Assembly: GCF_963921235.1 (NCBI RefSeq)
Contig: NC_086115.1
Coordinates: 37,510,001-37,574,000, forward strand
Length of the DNA: 64,000 nucleotides
Reading direction: 5' to 3'
Source of the DNA: Mobula hypostoma
Taxonomy: Eukaryota
Shown here: positions 13,573-53,010 of the stretch, in pieces
How the letters are laid out: the number at the start of each line of letters is the position of its first letter
Numbering within the stretch: position 1 is the first letter of the stretch
Translations under genes and position numbers: made by a program
The notes under the pieces: model-generated
What the model saw: only the letters and a program-made list of their open reading frames with translations
The model's database searches: none
What the model was told of the DNA's origin: nothing

Positions 13573-14822
13573 AACTGAAGGAAGACTGAGTAAGGGATTT
13601 GAAAGCTGGAGGGGGAGGGGGAGATGCAAAATGATAGGAGAAGACAGGAGGGGGAGGGATAGAGCCGAGAGCTGGACAGGTGATAGGCAAAAGGGGATAC
13701 GAGAGGATCATGGGACAGGAGGTCTGGGAAGAAAGACGGGGGGGGGGTGACCCAGAGGATGGGCAAGAGGTATATTCAGAGGGACAGAGGGAGAAAAAGG
13801 AGAGTGAGAGAAAGAATGTGTGCATAAAAATGAGTAACAGATGGGGTACGAGGGGGAGGTGGGGCCTTAGCGGAAGTTAGAGAAGTCGATGTTCATGCCA
13901 TCAGGTTGGAGGCTACCCAGACGGAATATAAGGTGTTGTTCCTCCAACCTGAGTGTGGCTTCATCTTTACAGTAGAGGAAGCCGTGGATAGACATGTCAG
14001 AATGGGAATTTTTCCCTCCCCCCCTCTCTCTGCATTCCGCAGGGATCGCTCCCTACACAACTCCCTTGTCCATTCGTCCCCCCCATCCCTCCCCACTGAT
14101 CTCCCTCCTGGCACTTATCCGTGTAAGCGGAACAAGTGCTACACATGCCCTTACACTTCCTCCCTTACCACCATTCAGGGCCCCAAACAGTCCTTCCAGG
14201 TGAGGCATCACTTCACCTGTGAGTCGACTGGGGTGATATACTGCGTCCGGTGCTCCCGATGTGGCCTTTTATATATTGGTGAGACCCGACGCAGACTGGG
14301 AGACCGCTTTGCTGAACATCTACGCTCTGTCCGCCAGAGAAAGCAGGATCTCCCAGTGGCCACACATTTTAATTCCACATCCCATTCCCATTCTGACATG
14401 TCTATCCACGGCTTCCTCTACTGTAAAGATGAAGCCACACTCAGGTTGGAGGAACAACACCTTATATTCCGTCTGGGTAGCCTCCAACCTGATGGCATGA
14501 ACATCGACTTCTCTAACTTCCGCTAAGGCCCCACCTCCCCCTCGTACCCCATCTGTTACTCATTTTTATGCACACATTCTTTCTCTCACTCTCCTTTTTC
14601 TCCCTCTGTCCCTCTGAATATACCTCTTGCCCATCCTCTGGGTCACCCCCCCCCCCCGTCTTTCTTCCCGGACCTCCTGTCCCATGATCCTCTCGTATCC
14701 CCTTTTGCCTATCACCTGTCCAGCTCTCGGCTCTATCCCTCCCCCTCCTGTCTTCTCCTATCATTTTGCATCTCCCCCTCCCCCTCCAGCTTTCAAATCC
14801 CTTACTCACTCTTCCTTCAGTT

Positions 14823-21874: not shown

Positions 21875-24307
21875 CACTCAGACCCTGCTTAACACTGAGG
21901 ATGCGCACCTTGGAGGTGGAGCTCTATGCAAATCAGCCCCATGCAGGGTGATTATAGCATTACAGAAACGGACATGTGTCTGATTTTTAAAAATTAAACA
22001 CTATATATTATTTTACGTACACACAGCAATTTGTGGAGTAACAAACATGCAAATAGGCCTGTGCATCAGTGGAGGGAAGTGGGTTGTGGTTACATCTTAG
22101 AGGGACCAGACTGTGGGTTCTCCTCTAACTTTGGCTTCTCCTTCATCAAGATTTGACTGCCTTTTCTTAAGTTTCCTTTCAAGAAGCAGCTCTCAGTAGC
22201 AGGAAACCATGTCGAAGATACCTCTCTTTGCTTTGTTGCTTTTCTCCCAGTCAGGCTATTATCAATGAACTGAAATGAATTTGATTTGACTTTATTTCTT
22301 ACATCCTTCTTCTACATGAGGAGTAAAAATCTTTACGCTACGTCTCCATCTAAATGTGTAAAGTGCAATTTATAATAAATAGTATGTACAACAGGACGGT
22401 CAATATAACATAGAAATACAATTGTGTAAGCATGATTTAATCAGTGTGATGGCCTGGTGGAAGGAGCTGTCCTGGAGCCTGTTGATCCTGACTTTTATGC
22501 TGCGGTACCGTTTCCTGGATGGTAACAGTTGGAACAGTTTGTGGTTGCGGGGACTTGGGTCCCCAATGATTCTTTGGGCCCTTTTTACACACATCTTTGT
22601 AAACGTCCTGAATAGTGGGAACAATTTCACCTACAGATGCGCTGGGCTGTCCACACCACCCTCTGCAGAGTCCAGCGACTGAGGGAAGTACAGTTCCCAT
22701 ACCAGGCAGTGATGCAACCAGTCAGGATGCTCTCAATTGTGCCCCTGTAGAAAGTTCTTAGGATCTGAGGGCCCGTACCAAACTTCAACCGTCTGAGGTG
22801 AAAGAAGTGCAGTTATGTCTTTTTCTCCACACAGCTGGTACGTACAGACCACGTGAGATCCTCGGTGATGAGGATGCCGAGGAATCTAAAGCTGTTCACC
22901 CTCTCAACCCCAGATCCATTGATATCTATAGGGGTTAGCATGCTCCATTCCTCCTGTAATCCACAACCGGCTTCTTTGTTTTTGTGACATTGGGGAAGAG
23001 GCTGTTTGCTCAACACCACTATGTCAGGGTGATGACTTCTTCTCTGTAGGCTGCTTCATTATTATTTGAGATTAGGCCAATCAGTGTAGTATCATCAGCA
23101 AAATTAATTAGCAGATTGGAACAGTGGGTGACGAGAGTCATGGGTATATAGAGAGTAAAGGAGGAGGCTTGGTACACAGCCCTGAGGGGCACCTGTGTTG
23201 AGGATCAGAGATGAGGGAGCCCTCTCTTTCCAACTGCCAGCAATCTGACAGGAAGTCCAGGATCCAGGTACACAAGGCAGGGTGAAGGCCGAGGGCTCTG
23301 AGCTTCTTGTCGAGCCTGGAGGGAATTATGGTCTTGAATGCTGAACTGTGTGTCTATGACTTGTGTGATTGCAGTGATGCTAGTGCTAGGAATTTTGTAG
23401 TTAACCAGTCCTTTGCAGCCTTGAACCCAGATGCATGTTTCTCTGCGAGAGATGAAAGTACGAGAAGGCGTTCTTTTCCAAAATAGGCCCATTTCATCTA
23501 CGTTGAAGGCAAGCTTGGGAAGGGAATCATCCTTTTCGATTAAGGCCCTCAGTGTTGAAGGAAAATCCTGGGCTGCCTTGCTGTCTGCACTAACCACTTC
23601 CCCAGAGATACGCATGATATGGAGGCTACTACGCTGTTTAAATCTGTTAAACCAACCTCTGCTGGCTATAAATGTTACCAACATACTATCTTCTTCTTGA
23701 ATACAATTGAAGACGCTTCTTGCCTTTTCCATTGTTATCAGCTAGCTTAGGGACATGTTTCATTGCCTTTGGTCATCCACCCATATACTTAGTCTATTTT
23801 CCATTTTTATCAAGTGAATGGCTCCTTGGACGAGTTACCTTTCTCGATGATAACTTTGAGGTTGTCGTTGCAAAAGCTTTATCTCGTCTGCATTTTTTAT
23901 AATTGTTCTGATTGTCAATGTAATCAATTTCAAAGAGGTACCAACATCAACCTGACACTTCCAAATGCCATACTGATGCTTTTCCGAGACACCTTCGGTG
24001 TCCTACCCTCATGGGAAGCTGCAGGCTGTTTTCCAGTCATTATGGGTGAAAAGAATGGAATAAATTGACGAGGGAGCAGGAATATTTACACATGCAGTTA
24101 AGGCAGTGTGTGAACTAATACATGATTGGCTGAGTGGCTCAGAGCATATATAAAGCAATTTCATTGGCTAATTGAATGTTTATTGCAATGGCAGCCACCG
24201 AGAAGCATTGTGTGTTGTTTAGAATAAATTTTTGTAATTTAAAAAAATTTCTACAAAGAATTGAATAACTGCATTGTAACGAATCAGCGCTATGCGGGGT
24301 CTGAGTG
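21875..24307 (-). mobile_element. Tigger/pogo DNA transposon remnant, interrupted by a LINE
   Basis: TIRs TA-CACTCAGACCC / GGGTCTGAGTG-TA. Transposase fragment FIASRGWFNRFKQR..SGEVVSAD..FNVDEMGLFWKRTPSRTFIS at about 23370-24040. Confidence 0.85.
22268..23347 (-). mobile_element. Rex1/Babar-like LINE 3' fragment inside the Tigger
   Basis: VERVNSFRFLGILITEDLTWS; AQRIIGDPS..LFQLLPSRKRYRSIK..RLQDSSFHQAI; short-repeat tail. Confidence 0.75.
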
Positions 24308-28400: not shown

Positions 28401-29231
28401 TTAATGCAGTTCCATCTCCTCCCGAGGGGCGTGTGGACTTTGCCCAGGGTCTTCTTCCATTTCTCCCAGCACTGATGAATTCAGAGCTTCTTTTGCTTCC
28501 TCTGCCGAGTTAAACGACATCTTCATGCCCTTGATATTCACTCTCAAAATCGCTGGGTATATGAGGAACGAGTCGATCCCCTTCTGTCAAAGCTTAGCGC
28601 GGATCTCCCTGTATCCCTGCCGTTCCTGTATCATGCCGGGGCTGTAGTCGGCAAAGAACTGCAGCTGGGTGCCATCCGGGAGAGTAGGTTTGGCCTTCCT
28701 CGCGCCCTCCAGGATAGCCTGCCGGTCGGTGTTCCGTAGAAGCCTAAAAACCATGATCCGCGGTCTTGAGGTGTTGTTGGAAAGGATCCTATGTGCTCTA
28801 TCGATCTCCAATGGAGTGCTGTGGAAATTCTTGAGCACTGGAATCCAATTAGGCAGCATCTTCTGGAGGTAACCTCTTGGATCGTTGCCCTCAGCGCCTG
28901 TCGGTAAGTTGACCAGCCACACATTGTTTCTCCTGGATCTGTCCTCCAAGTCATTAAGCTTCTTCCACATCTTAGTCACCTCCGTGAGACAGGAGTTAGT
29001 AACTTTCTCATTCTTGCGTAAGCAAACCTGAATGTTGTCTATTTTGTTGAAGACCATGCTAAATCTTTTAGCATGAATGTCTGCTTGCTCCTTTAATGAC
29101 AGAATGTTGCCATTCTCTGCCATATGCTTCTCTCTGGGGTCAAGGGTCTTTTCCAGCGACTCCTTTAGCATGTGGGCTACCGTTTCTTGCAGTGATTCCA
29201 TCTCCATTGTCATTGTTTGCTTAATTAGCAT
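28401..29231 (-). pseudogene. L1-clade ORF1p (coiled coil, RRM, CTD) with one premature stop
   Basis: LNDLEDRSRRNNVWLVNLPTGAEG..LEIDRAHR..LQFFADYS. The frame continues past the TGA at 28587-28589 (QKGIDSFLIYPAILRV..FNSAEEA) to a TAA at 28401. Confidence 0.85.
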
Positions 29232-31198
29232 AGCTATTTCCTCGGGTGAATCGCCAGGACAAATTCATACCAATTCCCATTTATCTTTGCTTTTCCAAAT
29301 GTCAGCTTGGTTTGTTCCATATTGTGAACTAAAGATTTTCATTACTGTCAACTGGCACACCTGAGCCAGATCTGACTCCCGTTTCTAATTTCTTGAATAC
29401 TACCTTGTAAAGTATCTTTGCTATAATATCTTTACCATACAATTTAGTTGTTGCCTCTTTATTGCTGTATTTAGCAGCACCCAGTTTCCAGTATGGACAA
29501 TCTTCACATCAAGGACACCATTGTGCTGTTTACCAACAAGGCAGAGCAGAAGGGCATACCAGCAGCCAGCCGGGTGGAACCAAAAATGAAGCACCACCAA
29601 CTGGAATATAGGATTACTTGAGTGCTAAACAGCAAAAAAAATTACAGAGAACTAATCACTCAGAACCTAAAGATCAGATCAAGGTTCGTCATTGATGAAT
29701 GATGACAGACAAAGGAAGAGGCTTAAAGTACATTCCCAACCTCAACAATGAAAGGACAACATGTGAATGCTAAAGAAAACGCTCAATTCTTCACAACGCT
29801 ATCAAGTGGCACATGGATTTGCAGAAGCATTTAGCACCAAACCTCAATGCAGCCTTGATGCAAACATGTTCGAAAGAACAGAAGTGACCGACAGCCCTCG
29901 ATGTCAAGGAAGCCTTTGATCATTTGTGGCCCTGACAAAGCTGAGTAATGGGTTTTAAAAGGAAAAACTCTCCAGTACTTGGAGTTATACATTGCACTCA
30001 GGAAGCTAGTTCCGGTTATTGAAATTCATCACACCAGTCCCAGGAAACCACGGCAGAAGCTTCTCAGGGCAATGTCCTATGCCCAGATAGATTCAATCTC
30101 AATGGCATCATGTGAAGATTCTCAATTTTGAGAAATGAAGCAACCCCTGTCTGCACGCATTAATCCCCAGATAAAGTTCAGGCATCAGCTGATATAGAGC
30201 AAATAACAACTGATCCATAAAAATGCAAGGCAATAACCATAGAAACATAGAAAACCTACAGCACAATACAGGCCCTTCGGGGCACAATGCTGTGCCGAAC
30301 ATGTACTTACTTTAGAAATTACCTTGGGTTACCTACAACCATCTAATCATTTGCCATGACATTCAAAAACACTGCCACACCTGGGTTCCCTGCCATCAAA
30401 ACCGAGTAGGAACTCATCCGGATGAGCCATACAAGGACCGTGGCTTTGAGTAGTTCAGAGGTTGAGTATCCTGCAGCAAATGACTCACCAGTTTTCACAA
30501 TATGCAAGACAAAAGCCAAAGTGGTTACTCTCCACCTGCCTGATTGCAATGCCAACATGTTTCAAAAATCAATGGCAAAGCAAGTTGAAATATTGTATCA
30601 CAGAACCGTTTTACCTGCTATGTAGAGATGCAAGGAGCATCCCTTACCTCAGACATCTACAAGGGTTGCCAATCTATTTTATGCCTTGGACCATTACCAT
30701 TAACCGAAGGGTCCGTGGACCCCAGATTGGGACCCCTGATCTACAGGAATCTTAATCCTTCTGAAAGTCATAGCCTTAAGATGAAGTTTACCCTGTTTAC
30801 TTTCTCAACTCTGAACAGTGGTGCAGAGGAAAGTATGCATGGGTTAACTATACTTGAAACACTACTAAAATCTGTTCAGCTCCTAAAATTCAAAGCACCA
30901 GCCTTCAACACTTCTTTCTGCATCACTTCTGCTGTTTCCCTAACCTCAAAAGAACATTTTTGCATTCTCTTATGTACCCATGTCCTATGTCCCTGAGCAC
31001 TGAATACTACAGTGCTCATGGTCATAGGTCATTTCTCCACCCCCCAGCAAGGGGTACTCACTTTTCCAAAGGCAGGTCTCGTATTATACAATTCATCTGG
31101 ACAGTTTATCATAGTAAACCAAACAAAACACAGCAAATCAAGTGTTAGGTACTTCTACAAATTTAAGTACAAATACTGCAATTGTTAACAAGCTTTAC

Positions 31199-33233: not shown

Positions 33234-33544
33234 TCCGACCCCGGGGCGTATCGGGACCTAGCCGGGCGTGCGCGTGCGCGTGCGATCCACTGCGTGCGCG
33301 AGCGCGGCATCCTATGCACGCGCACAGGTCGCAGGCATCGTGCGGACGCGCGCACAAAGTCGGATGGAGAGCTGTGCCCATCGTTATTACGCAAACTACA
33401 GTGCGGTTATTCGAACTACGGCCTCCCAGAAACCTGATCTCCAGCTCACCCTGCACCCTCCCGGGTCTCCTTCCACAGCCCAAAGCTGGGCGGGTTGATC
33501 AGGTTTACTGTCATAACTAAACAAACCCAGGGTGTAAATGCCCT

Positions 33545-34830
33545 TTCTGGATCTTTCTGTCTCTGTCTCTGGAGACAGCTTATCTACTGATGTCTACTAT
33601 AAGCCTACTGACTCTCACAGCTATCTGGACTATTCCTCTTCTCACCCTGTCTCTTGCAAAAACACCATCCCCTTCTCGCAATTCCTCCGTCTCCGCCGCA
33701 TCTGCTCTCAGGATGAGGCTTTTCATTCTAGGACGAGGGAGATGTCTTCCTTTTTTAAAGAAAGGGGCTTCCCTTCCTCCACTATCAACTCTGCTCTTAA
33801 GTGCATCCCCCCCATTTCACGTACATCTGCTCTCACTCCATTCTCCCGCCACCCCACTAGGAATAGGGTTCCCCTGGTCCTCACCTACCACCCCACCAGC
33901 CTCCGGGTCCAACATATTATTCTCCATAATTTCCCTCCCCCCCCCTCTGCATTCTGCAGGGATCACTCCCTACACAACTCCCTTGTCCATTCGTCCCCCC
34001 CATCCCTCCCCACTGATCTCCCTCCTGGCACTTATCCGTGTAAGCGGAACAAGTGCTACACATGCCCTTACACTTCCTCCCTTACCACCATTCAGGGCCC
34101 CAAACAGTCCTTCCAGGTGAGGCAACACTTCACCTGTGAGTCGACTGGGGTGATATACTGCGTCCGGTGCTCCCGATGTGGCTTTTTATATATTGGCGAG
34201 ACCCGACGCAGACTGGGAGACCGCTTTGCTGAACATCTACGCTCTGTCCGCCAGAGAAAGCAGGATCTCCCAGTGGCCACACATTTTAATTCCACATCCA
34301 TTCCCATTCTGACATGTCTATCCACGGCCTCCTCTACTGTAAAGATGAAGCCACACTCAGGTTGGAGGAACAACACCTTATATTCCGGCTGGGTAGCCTC
34401 CAACCTGATGGCATGAACATCGACTTCTCTAACTTCCGCTAAGGCCCCACCTCCCCCTCGTACCCCATCTGTTACTCATTTTTATGCACACATTCTTTCT
34501 CTCACTCTCCTTTTTCTCCCTCTGTCCCTCTGAATATATCTCTTGCCCATCCTCTGGGTCCCCCCCCTTGTCTTTCTTCCCGGACCTCCTGTCCCATGAT
34601 CCTCTCGTATCCCCTTTTGCCAATCACCTGTCCAGCTCTTGACTCCATCCCTCCCCCTCCTGTCTTCTCCTATCATTTTGGATCTCCCCTTCCCCCTCCA
34701 GCTTTCAAATCCCTTACTCACTCTTCCTTCAGTTAGTCCTGACAAGGGTCTCGGCCTGAAACGTCTACTGCACCTCTTCCTAGAGATGCTGCCTGGCCTG
34801 CTGCGTTCACCAGCAACTTTGATGTGTGTT
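33545..34830 (+). mobile_element. 5'-truncated Penelope-like element (RT C-terminus/thumb plus GIY-YIG)
   Basis: PFLDLSV..TDVYYKPTDSHSYLDYSSSHP..IPFSQFLRLRRICS, Cys linker and GIY-YIG. 13-bp TSD GTGTAAATGCCCT (33532-33544 / 34831-34843). Frameshift near 34297. Confidence 0.92.
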
Positions 34831-49215: not shown

Positions 49216-50879
49216 CTTAAACACCACCAGAGTATTTGTTCCAGGCACCTACCACTCTCCATGCTTTTTTATTTCCTTTATGATTCCTCTTTTTACCTTG
49301 AGTGCGTGTCCTTTTGTACTTGAGGAGAATCCTGGTAATCCTCTCCTGCACTTCAACATCTTTCTTGTCATGGGATCAAAGTACGGGTAAGATTTGTTAT
49401 CAAAGTACACGTTATGAAATACTACCTCAAGTTTCATTTTCTTGAAGGCATTAATTACACTCAATGTGCAGCAGAACCAAAATTTTATAATTTTTCATAA
49501 TTTCTGCCATCTTCGGTATTCTGCATCCTTTCATGTACTTTGAAGGGACTATTCTCTTCTCTGGTCTATTCTTCAATCTCACTGGTCACTTTCTGCTCTA
49601 TGCACTTCCCATGCAACCACAGCAAATGCAAAACTGCCCTTGTATTTCCCTTCCACCATCCAAGACTCGAGCAGCCTTTACATGTGGGAAAAGAAGCAAA
49701 GATTTACTTGCGCTTCTGCCAGTCTAGTGAATTGCGTTTGAAGTTAGCAATGTGATCTACAGTGTTGGAGAAAATGAGTAGATGGGGTAACTCCTTGGTA
49801 GAGCACCTGCATTCAGACCACAGATGATCAATAGCTACCTTTTACCAGTCACTCAGATTTTCTATTCCGCTCTCAAGTTGACCTATGTGTGTCTGGTCTC
49901 CATCATTGTTACAAGGAGTCCTAATGCGAGCTTGAGGAAAGGGACCTCGACTTCTATCTGAGCACATGTACAGAAAACTGCACTGATACTGAATTCTACA
50001 ACTTATGATGACCTACTTTCTCCTTCTATATTAGAACAAACTTTTTGTTGTAAGTCTTCTGCCTGTGATTTGAGCTTAAAATTTCTATTTGTTTTACTTT
50101 GCCTCTCCATTAGAGCACTGTAGTCTGTTATTTGCCAATGCATCATATTTCCTGCAATTCTTCAATTACCCATAAAATAACTTGTTCCCATGGCAGCCCT
50201 GGCTGTAACCCATCACAGATATTCCATCTGCAATATTCTGTAACTCCAAACGTAAAACTGACTCAAGAGAAATTAGGTTCTGGAAAGGTTGCTGTGAGAA
50301 AGCAGGAGAATGAGGTTGAAAGGGAAATGGATCAGTCATGGTGAAATGGTGGGACAGACTCAATGGACCAAATGGCCTAATTCTGCTCCTATGTCTTAGG
50401 AAAAATGAGAGCCGAGTGAAGGTGCACATGTATCATGTGGTAGCGTCATGATGTATGCAATTTGTGTATTTTTACATACAACACATAATGAATTATTAAA
50501 ATGAACAAGAATGCCTAAACAAACAATATATTTAGGCTTACTCAAATACTACAGAAATATTAAATACACAATACTCCTTCCTGCTTAGCTGTAAACTCCA
50601 ACTCAATAGAGAGTACATCTCAAATATACGCATAATATACTTGACAATGCAACTACTATATACAGACATCTGCAGCATAGTAAGTTTTAAATTGGCCCGT
50701 TTGGGCCTAGAGATTTAATCAATGTGGAGGATTTCTTACTTTTGAGGGATAACATCTTTCCTGACAAGGGAGGTTACTCTGCTTGGCAGGTGAGACTTGT
50801 GGCTGTGAAACAATCTCAGGTTCTGGGGCTTCCTCCTCATTTGACTCCGAGACTGCAGGAAGTGGTTCTGACAGCTCTA

Positions 50880-51548
50880 GATCTACTTCATTCCTCACCT
50901 CTCTCTGGGTCCTGGCTCTTTTTCTTTCTCTTTTTCATACCTTATTCTTTCTCACTCACTTTCTTTCTCTCTTCTCTCATTTTCAATTTCTATTTTCTTG
51001 TCAGTATATCTGAATTAGCAAATTTCTCGAGAAATTGGGTCTCGTTTATCCTCTTCCATTTCCAAAGCACTTATTTCCCTTTATCTTCTTTTGAAGATGT
51101 GCATCTTGATCTTGGGAAGGTGCATTTATTTCACTGGAGTATTCTCTTATTAATCCTTCTGTTGCTCCCTTTCCAAACTGATCCATCCCCTTAGTCTCCT
51201 CATCCAGAACATCATCTGACAAATCATCTGTTTTCGTATCTCCATTGACTCTTTCTTTTTGGCCTACCATTCATCCTGCTGGGCTTTGGTCTTTGCGTCT
51301 ACTTTTACAAGTAGCTTTTTGTATCTCGTTTGAAGTTTATGCAATAACCTTAATGCTCGCAGTGTAGGTTCTAGTTCTTTATAACCACAAAAGCTGAATG
51401 CTTGCAGTATTCCTAAAACTCCTTGAGCTCTCTTCCTGCTTAAACCCAAGCCACATTTAGCAAGTGACTGCCTGATTAATATATCAGAAGCTTTCTCAGA
51501 TACGTTGCCTACAAAAACTGTTGTAGTCAGACCACTCCTTTGGTCTCC
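50880..51548 (-). pseudogene. RBM25: Processed (intronless) RBM25 fragment: RRM plus start of the RE-rich region
   Basis: TTTVFVGNVSEKASDILIRQSLAKCGLGLSRKRAQG..LQAFSFCGYKELEPTLRALRLLH..KKLLVKVDAKTKAQQDEW; LDEETK..LIREYSSEINAPSQ; EMEEDKRDPISREI. All match RBM25 as recalled. Disrupted by stops and frameshifts. Confidence 0.9.
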
Positions 51549-51549
51549 C

Positions 51550-52215
51550 TGACATGCTCTTTATATGTGTCCTACGTTGTTGCATTTTCTGTAAGTTTTG
51601 TGTTGAAACCTGCATTGGCCTGGTGTATGAGAGCCCCTGAGACAACAATAACACTATTTGTTCAGCCAAATAGGCTTCCATCTAGATGCTACAATTTTGT
51701 TCATGCTCACATTCATTCCTGACTGCAACTCAATTGCATCTCTATCTGCTGTTTCCATTAAAACAGCAATTTCAACTGCTCTTTTAAATGTAAATTGTAC
51801 TTCAGTTAGAAGGTGTTTTTGAATGCTTTCTTGTAAGATTCCACAAATTAAACATTGTCTGTGCATCATTAAGCCCATTACCAAACTGACAACTTCAGTT
51901 CAGCCATGTACGCTGAACTGGACCCCCTTTCCTTAATCGTTAAGAGTTCTGCAATCAACAATGGTTTCAGTTCTAAATGTTCCTGCATTGCTTTCACAAT
52001 ATCAGCAAAACTCATTTCTGCTGACTTGGTTAGAGCAGTCAAACTCTTAAGCAAACTATATGCTTTTAAATTCAATGCACTAAGCAAAACTGGTACTTGT
52101 TTCTCACTGGCTATTCCATTTGTTTTAAAGTGCTGTTCAATCCATTCTGTGTACAATTTCCAGTTATCTATTGTGTCATGGAATGGCCAATCTTTCCAAT
52201 GTAGCCAGCCAATTC
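51550..52215 (-). pseudogene. Degenerate Gypsy gag (capsid-like region plus zinc knuckles)
   Basis: YTEWIEQHFKTNGIASEKQVPVLLSAL...QEHLELKPLLIAE; LICGILQESIQKHLLTE...FKRAVEIA; CYCCLRGSHTPGQC...YRKCNNVGHI*RAC. Contains stops and frameshifts. Confidence 0.8.
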
Positions 52216-53010
52216 TGCTTTTTTAATTATTGTCATCTGGTACTCACTGATGATGAACTTGTGAATTCTTCCATTTTCTGCCTTTTTTTGAAACTTGATC
52301 ATGTCTTTTTTTTAAACTTGAATGTTTCCCTGCAATTCCATTGGTAGGTAGTCATCTTGGGTTCATTTTTAAAAACGCCTCACTGTCACTGTTATGTTTT
52401 GTAATGCCAAACATAACACTAATTGAGAGGAAAAATAGGAGATGCCAGTCTTAGTTTGCTTTTTTTACTTTAAGCGAGGCACGCATGTATCGTGTGGTAG
52501 CATCATAATGTCTGCAATTCATGTATTTTTACATATAACCTGCAATGAATGACTTAAATGAATGAGAATACTTAATCAAACAATATATTTACAATATTAT
52601 TCAAATACTACTGAAATATTCAATACACAACACCATCCTTCGCCAGAGTTGCTAACTCTTCTCGGCAACTTTCCTCGTTCCGACAAAGGGTCTTCTACCT
52701 GAAACATTTAACTCCATTTTGCTTTCCACAGATGCTGCCTAACCTAATTTCTAGCATTGTGGCTTTGTTTCAGAAAACTCCAAGACCCTTCTGATATTCT
52801 GTATTTTGGTTGTTCCCACGTCATGTTCATTTTATGAACCTTTATTTATATCTTCTAATTTCCTTGGTGTCCAAGAAAATAACTCCGTCTGGCCTTGGCT
52901 ACAGCCATCCAAATGAGATGGGACTAAAATTTGCAACCTCTCACAAGAGGGTATTTGTGTCCTTCCAAGGCTTGTCTTAAAATTATGTTCCCCGATTTTG
53001 GATTCTAGAG

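Follow-up and report, generated by a model that had tools for sequence, protein, structure and literature searches.

Layout of the window element

The window, i.e. the whole 64,000-nucleotide stretch of Mobula hypostoma DNA that was analysed, contains on its minus strand a 2.4-kb LTR element (50229-52632) within a CCATC target-site duplication (TSD). Both TSD copies read CCATC on the plus strand, the upstream one at 52633-52637 and the downstream one at 50224-50228; the span of 50224-52637 given in the initial annotation takes in both. The order on the minus strand is TSD, 5' LTR, a site resembling a primer-binding site (PBS), gag, RBM25-derived DNA, an integrase C-terminal tail, a polypurine tract (PPT), 3' LTR and TSD. 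Each part of the Gypsy layout initially proposed was located, including the duplication that flanks the whole unit. The TG...CA LTRs, 5-bp TSD, PBS and PPT are Ty3/Gypsy hallmarks. Seven of 15 other full-length candidates have kept four to five of the five TSD letters, their ends being allowed to shift by 1-2 nt.

The 5' LTR (52390-52632, 243 nt, TG...CA) is followed by a decayed PBS at 52378-52389, where a TGGCGACGAGG-type site fits other copies (27 natural copies viewed); we take this type to correspond to tRNA-Ser. The gag region (51546-52310), which ends in a CCHC knuckle, matches residues 11-230 of the fish Gypsy polyprotein P0121, with 56% identity over residues 129-230 and 50% over residues 11-112. 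It harbours stops, one of them at 51561-51563, and two frame changes that were not mentioned in the initial annotation. Then come spliced RBM25 exons B (part), C, D, E, F and G (part) at 50877-51545, corresponding to the RRM and the start of the Arg/Glu-rich region and marked by stops and indels, the integrase C-terminal tail of the parent Gypsy (50710-50876; P0121 residues 585-652, E-value 1e-7), the PPT (50574-50586) and the 3' LTR (50229-50573). Two joins left by deletions are found at the borders of the RBM25 piece. The first, at 51539-51545, is that of a copy-specific deletion of ~680 nt and lies at a short GAC-A/G-AAA similarity. The second, at 50875-50881, is that of a ~30-nt deletion by which the true 3' switch of the family was lost. 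A very abundant repeat has left a ~135-nt fragment inside the 3' LTR, at ~50280-50413, another feature that was previously unmentioned. This repeat has four more matches in the window and showed the greatest depth in our comparison of sequencing runs.

Nothing remains in the window element of reverse transcriptase (RT), RNase H or the integrase core, in line with the proposal that host sequence has replaced them. The copy is decayed, as first noted, and its two LTRs align over 209 columns with 78% identity (K2P 0.27), which provides the LTR divergence that had been suggested for dating. No significant Pfam match was obtained for five window frames, a PDB sequence search gave weak RRM matches only, and Rfam gave no match.

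The host RBM25 gene and the captured exons

A protein search with the RRM frame (51264-51557) returned RBM25, with up to 79% identity and a best E-value of 1e-34, the top match being a shark protein; the identity originally assigned to the host piece is therefore correct. The host RBM25 gene, with introns, is found on the minus strand of contig C1, from ~99,840,600 to ~99,791,400. It was found separately from a search for PWI, which matched loci other than RBM25. Host exon ends are immediately flanked by AG/GT in seven of the nine cases checked, and a 1-nt correction was made for the other two. The RBM25 piece of the window aligns with six host exons, from B (part) to G, with 79-91% identity. 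It crosses five exon junctions without any intron, and neither a poly(A) nor a duplication of its own was found at either end, in agreement with the initial annotation.

Copies elsewhere in the genome extend further on both sides. In long family copies, the RBM25 sequence extends beyond exon G and reaches ~27 nt into exon H, with eight junctions crossed. On the upstream side, family copies include the whole of exon B, preceded by exon A (48 nt) and the last part of exon 3, the captured piece starting ~140 nt further upstream in RBM25 than that of the window copy. Exon A is present in the shark proteins P0001 and P0233 and in the transcript-derived protein P0234, and it is absent from the frog and bichir RBM25 proteins viewed. 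A query covering exon A to the RRM returned 12 proteins, of which the named ones are RBM25-like. In the host gene, exon A lies at G000:C1:99832586-99832633 (L042), in frame, and its last 14 codons match shark P0001 exactly. It is possibly a cassette exon of cartilaginous fishes. The family thereby preserves an old RBM25 isoform with the 48-nt exon, which is shared with the shark proteins. Upstream of the start codon of the host gene, two solo-LTR-like fragments of the chimera family lie in antisense orientation at G000:C1:99876648-99876890 and 99906403-99906635.

A large family of pol-less chimeras

We estimate that the chimera family comprises ~1,500-2,500 genomic copies. The RBM25 piece has 2,812 candidate matches in the genome, of which 40 were scored. 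An 18-mer spanning exons C and D has 289 exact matches, none of them in a 140-kb stretch with the host gene, and its backwards control has none at all. This word is carried by 13 of the 65 copies of the sample in which it was chosen as the best word, and by 5 of 44 in a second sample; the matches thus correspond to ~1,450-2,550 copies. Similarly, a 25-mer across the 5' junction has 142 matches; 69 of the 90 inspected are chimeric (26/30 and 43/60), and its presence in 3/44 and 2/30 independent copies gives ~1,600 copies. The parent-type 25-mer has 241 matches, and at the 5' switch site chimeras are roughly a third to half as common as parent-type copies.

The typical copy has the structure LTR-gag-protease-RBM25-tail-LTR. 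Its gag knuckle and RRM are ~680 nt apart, the interval being made up of a linker, the protease, the first RT codons and extra RBM25 sequence. The initial annotation had the protease replaced by host sequence along with the rest of pol, but 95 of 109 chimeras have kept a retroviral-type protease, whose D, T and G are the commonest residues at their columns (60, 60 and 51 copies, respectively). In the guide polyprotein P0164, RT is followed by RNase H and then by integrase, and parent copies carry these domains after the protease. The three domains are covered to at least 98% in three of 20 parent-type copies, and none of 41 six-kb chimera loci covers more than 20% of any of them. Some parent-type copies have lost parts of pol without carrying any cargo. 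A short subfamily, in which exon E is joined to the start of exon G and then to the tail, accounts for 31 of the 67 anchored copies, and 26 of these 31 have the exon E-exon G join. The RRM is whole in both subfamilies, the shared deletions being confined to the downstream purine-rich part.

As for protein databases, nothing was returned by a search with gag. A profile-free search with the frame across the protease-RBM25 junction gave Gypsy polyproteins and RBM25 separately, with no fusion among the 15 matches viewed of 110. In related genomes, annotation and read mapping can be led astray by the thousands of RBM25-like pieces. Two chimeras in opposite orientation, L228 and L229 (G000:C96:22.42 Mb and 23.60 Mb), are 97% identical over 809 nt, whereas other pairs are at most 90% identical; over the following 600 nt the identity drops to 84%. 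This likeness would be due to gene conversion or a partial duplication.

Switch points and the capture mechanism

Both switch points were deleted in the window copy, and they can be read in family copies. At the 5' switch, the word TGCCACA occurs both in pol of the parent and at the end of host exon 3, after which the chimera has three host letters followed by exon A. On the element side, the switch is thus located downstream of the protease, where RT begins, and on the host side it is inside exon 3, 10 nt before its end. These 7 nt of microhomology are in the same frame in parent and host, so that 17 of 24 anchored copies read from the protease into RBM25 without a shift. A junction of this kind has a prior one-in-three chance of being in frame and is no evidence for or against translation having mattered. 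At the 3' switch, GAGAAGAAA (9 nt) is common to the parent integrase and host exon H (nine parent copies viewed). Here the frames of parent and host differ, and the integrase tail is consequently out of frame with RBM25.

The double template switch onto spliced RBM25 mRNA put forward in the initial annotation agrees with the crossed exon junctions, and the check for microhomology that it called for gave a shared word at each switch point. Its suggestion that the unit integrated as a whole and spread as a family is likewise supported. We consider with good confidence that the window element is a decayed, twice-deleted copy of a Gypsy element whose RT, RNase H and integrase core were replaced through two template switches, and which probably spread non-autonomously through the enzymes of its parent. 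Two template switches onto co-packaged RBM25 mRNA appear to be the most likely capture route, and the chimera likely multiplied as a non-autonomous passenger of the enzymes of the intact parent family. A single capture event would have taken place in a virus-like particle. The founder would have kept its LTRs, PBS, PPT and gag-protease frame, and its shorter RNA would have been packaged and copied in trans. The burst probably followed soon after capture, and further deletions in the purine-rich part would have given rise to the short subfamily. RBM25 would be cargo rather than a selected protein.

One of the 138 loci, L018 (G000:C67:49968644-49972111), has a short-type RBM25 piece followed by ~200 nt of parent integrase-side sequence and then the tail. 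This single case is likely a recombinant with the helper RNA, as co-packaging would allow. Besides L018, two more matches among the 138 loci are candidates for such a switch.

Age, decay and selection

For 110 of the 138 loci, excluding 28 with less than 300 nt of exons A-E, copies are 81% identical in pairwise comparisons and differ by ~11% from their centre, defined by the commonest letter per column. Their tree is star-shaped, with a terminal length of 12.4 and an internal length of 0.6. The LTR pairs of 19 chimeras have K2P values of 0.17-0.33, with a median of 0.23. Synonymous and non-synonymous variants are equally frequent (0.054 and 0.060 for transitions), and every one of the 110 copies has a stop or a frameshift in exons A-E. 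The copies decayed neutrally after a star-like burst. Chimeras and parent-type copies show similar decay (0.116 and 0.103, respectively), and they differ in 9 of 406 gag-protease codon columns, six synonymous and three not. The centre of the copies differs from today's host in 24 synonymous and five non-synonymous columns, and ~17 synonymous differences are expected from drift of the host since the burst (P 0.06). As the synonymous count is near this expectation, the burst likely took place soon after capture; the excess leaves room, if only a little, for a brief phase of purifying selection.

In runs X5 and X9 (organisms B and C), contigs with ~98% and ~92% identity extend across both insertion junctions of the window element, which indicates that the insertion predates a split of ~7-8% neutral divergence. 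None of the contigs listed from runs X10 and X15 bridges an insertion junction. The short-type join is present in all four sequencing runs compared (organisms B, C, D and G), other runs with small word shares being left out of the comparison. No RNA run was among the matching runs listed, which carries no information on expression. Absolute dating was abandoned: a rate of 7e-10 per generation, taken from excerpts of PMC10587355, would give more than 100 million generations, and this rate is not transferable.

No selection on the captured RBM25 frame was detected in the 110 copies, the power being low because few shared changes date from the founder lineage. Diagnostic changes between subfamilies, defined with 45 long and 28 short copies (71 unassigned), comprise two non-synonymous and no synonymous ones in RBM25, and two of each in gag-protease. 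Transversions shared by at least 15% of copies in RBM25 exons A-E number 0 at 173 synonymous and 4 at 1,005 non-synonymous or stop positions. A synonymous excess was found in one of eight tests on shared variants, for transversions in the chimera gag (5/136 vs 12/1080, p 0.03 uncorrected). At the window locus there is neither an intact frame nor a sign of purifying selection, given the stops, the frame changes and a pN/pS of 0.92. No preserved retrogene was found among the 150 scored of 5,629 candidates. The best one, 80% identical to the shark protein, has a stop; some candidates match without an internal stop, though with 66-80% identity.

Was the RBM25 module an accessory protein?

One may also speculate that the captured domain drove the burst. 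An in-frame Gag-protease-RBM25 polyprotein might have given a cis advantage, its RRM and Arg/Glu-rich module binding or routing the element's own RNA. Apart from the in-frame 5' junction, this idea could draw on the prevalence of the protease DTG residues, on the sparing of the RRM in both subfamilies while shared deletions affected the downstream part, on a centre that is nearly identical to the host protein and on a copy number far above those in the consulted sections of published cases. A burst soon after capture would by itself lead to near-identity to the host, though, and the shared variants in exons A-E show no deficit of non-synonymous changes, both subfamily-diagnostic changes in RBM25 being non-synonymous. 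In addition, cargo-less parent-type copies with pol deletions exist as well. It is thus unlikely that the host module of a founder polyprotein was taken into particles and gave the element's own RNA an advantage. If it was, a stolen splicing-factor domain would have made a pol-less element a hyperparasite about a third the size of its helper family, and a host RNA-binding domain would have been recruited as a retrotransposon accessory protein.

Other routes to the chimera

Two routes without template switching deserve mention, namely splicing of a read-through transcript from elements located in the RBM25 gene, or a processed pseudogene made by a LINE in a Gypsy copy that then spread. At first sight, the captured segment begins on the acceptor of exon A, and the antisense LTR-family fragments, 36-66 kb upstream of the start codon of the host gene, might point to a read-through transcript. 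The actual 5' switch is inside exon 3 and the 3' end inside exon H, each with microhomology, and we rejected capture by splicing because both ends are mid-exon. A processed pseudogene is opposed by the lack of poly(A) and of an inner duplication, and by the fact that pol was replaced rather than interrupted. We regard both routes as very improbable, and template switching remains the preferred explanation.

As first described, the gag knuckle of the window copy runs into the RRM in one frame, with a stop at 51561-51563. This join was created by the ~680-nt deletion, which took the linker, the protease, the start of RT, RBM25 exon A and half of exon B. Both anchors are present in 70 of 136 other loci, and they are separated by at least 600 nt in 69 of these and by 198 nt in one, compared with 15 nt in the window; none of the 70 has the window's join. 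With a 156-nt query across the join, the window alone spans it among the best 40 of 3,230 candidates. The search for copies with an identical junction, as initially recommended, thus gave none in the 70 scorable copies or in the other 39 top matches. No contig among those listed from the sequencing runs bridges it either. In natural copies, the short GAC-A/G-AAA similarity is found on both sides of the deleted segment, in codon phase, which explains why the join is in frame. The knuckle-RRM join is a secondary deletion, an accident of the window copy, and not the capture junction. It would have arisen later, in this copy alone, by deletion between short repeats, either during its own reverse transcription or after insertion. 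A join resembling that of the second, ~30-nt deletion is also present in L017 and L028.

According to the initial annotation, a Gag-knuckle-RRM fusion was the direct product of template switching and may itself have formed a mobile family; the shared frame in the window copy is in favour of this version, but the anchor spacing, the lack of any other match spanning the join and the pN/pS of the window's RBM25 part (45 non-synonymous and 13 synonymous differences) make it barely credible. A mobile chimera family does exist in the form of gag-protease-RBM25, and no Gag-RRM family was seen in the 70 scorable copies. The window locus provides no demonstration of a new functional Gag-RRM protein.

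Relation to known systems

The RBM25 family shows traits of non-autonomous LTR families, with many dispersed pol-less copies, shared junctions and a contemporaneous autonomous partner. TR-GAG elements of plants are non-autonomous LTR elements with gag but no pol; the RBM25 family has also retained the protease and carries host exons where pol would be. Acutely transforming gag-onc retroviruses depend on helpers and carry host cDNA in frame behind gag. The analogy with them drawn in the initial annotation applies to the architecture, with a host domain in frame behind gag-protease in 17 of 24 copies. It does not extend to selection, as no selected host function was detected, and the RBM25 family has no env and is of Gypsy rather than retroviral type.

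The capture mechanism is already known. The main-text sections of Tan et al. 2016 (PMC5131818) describe LTR-mediated retroposition, in which part of a spliced mRNA lies between discontinuous parts of an LTR element, in sense orientation and often in frame, with microsimilarity at both switch points and no poly(A). According to the same sections, such chimeras can act as non-autonomous elements and occur in single or few copies (PMC5131818). The RBM25 family resembles them in being intronless and in crossing parental exon junctions (five in the window, up to eight in the family), in its discontinuous flanks (gag-protease before, integrase tail-PPT-LTR after, with no pol core), in its 7-nt and 9-nt microsimilarities and in a host piece without poly(A) or TSD. 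It differs from the cases in those sections by its ~1,500-2,500 copies, its subfamilies, its occurrence in a cartilaginous fish and its in-frame gag-protease. From these sequence features, the family can be regarded as an LTR-mediated retrocopy acting as a non-autonomous element.

Maize Bs1, as presented in the main-text sections of PMC5131818, has host exons in an LTR element that was re-transposed with shared switch points; it is present in 1-5 copies, derives from three parental genes and is described as functional. The RBM25 family, in comparison, derives from a single parental gene, numbers thousands of copies and shows no sign of constraint. According to the consulted sections of PMC4299795, crocodilian ERVs captured KIT-ligand and nectin3 mRNA and multiplied to nine and six copies, with open reading frames under purifying selection, pol retained and nectin3 replacing a viral gene. 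Here, too, a vertebrate LTR element captured a host mRNA and multiplied, but unlike in those sections pol was lost and the copies evolve neutrally. The copy number of the RBM25 family is two orders of magnitude above the published cases compared (1-9 copies; main-text sections of PMC5131818, and consulted sections of PMC4299795).

No literature on an RBM25 chimera family was recognised by title or opening of the abstract in our search, whose scope excluded most subscription journals and repeat databases. LTR-mediated gene capture has left a clean natural record here: a single genome contains the parent, the host gene and both microhomologies. The family further indicates that such a chimera can grow into a major repeat family.

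Other features of the window

Two similar frames are found at 13834-14526 and 33538-34416, the first with a GIY-YIG domain; they are presumably remnants of Penelope-like retroelements. On the minus strand, a remnant of a Tc5-type transposase DNA-binding region lies at 23205-23741, and an open frame of 225 amino acids without a Pfam match, which in our view resembles a LINE ORF1 protein, is present at 28587-29264.
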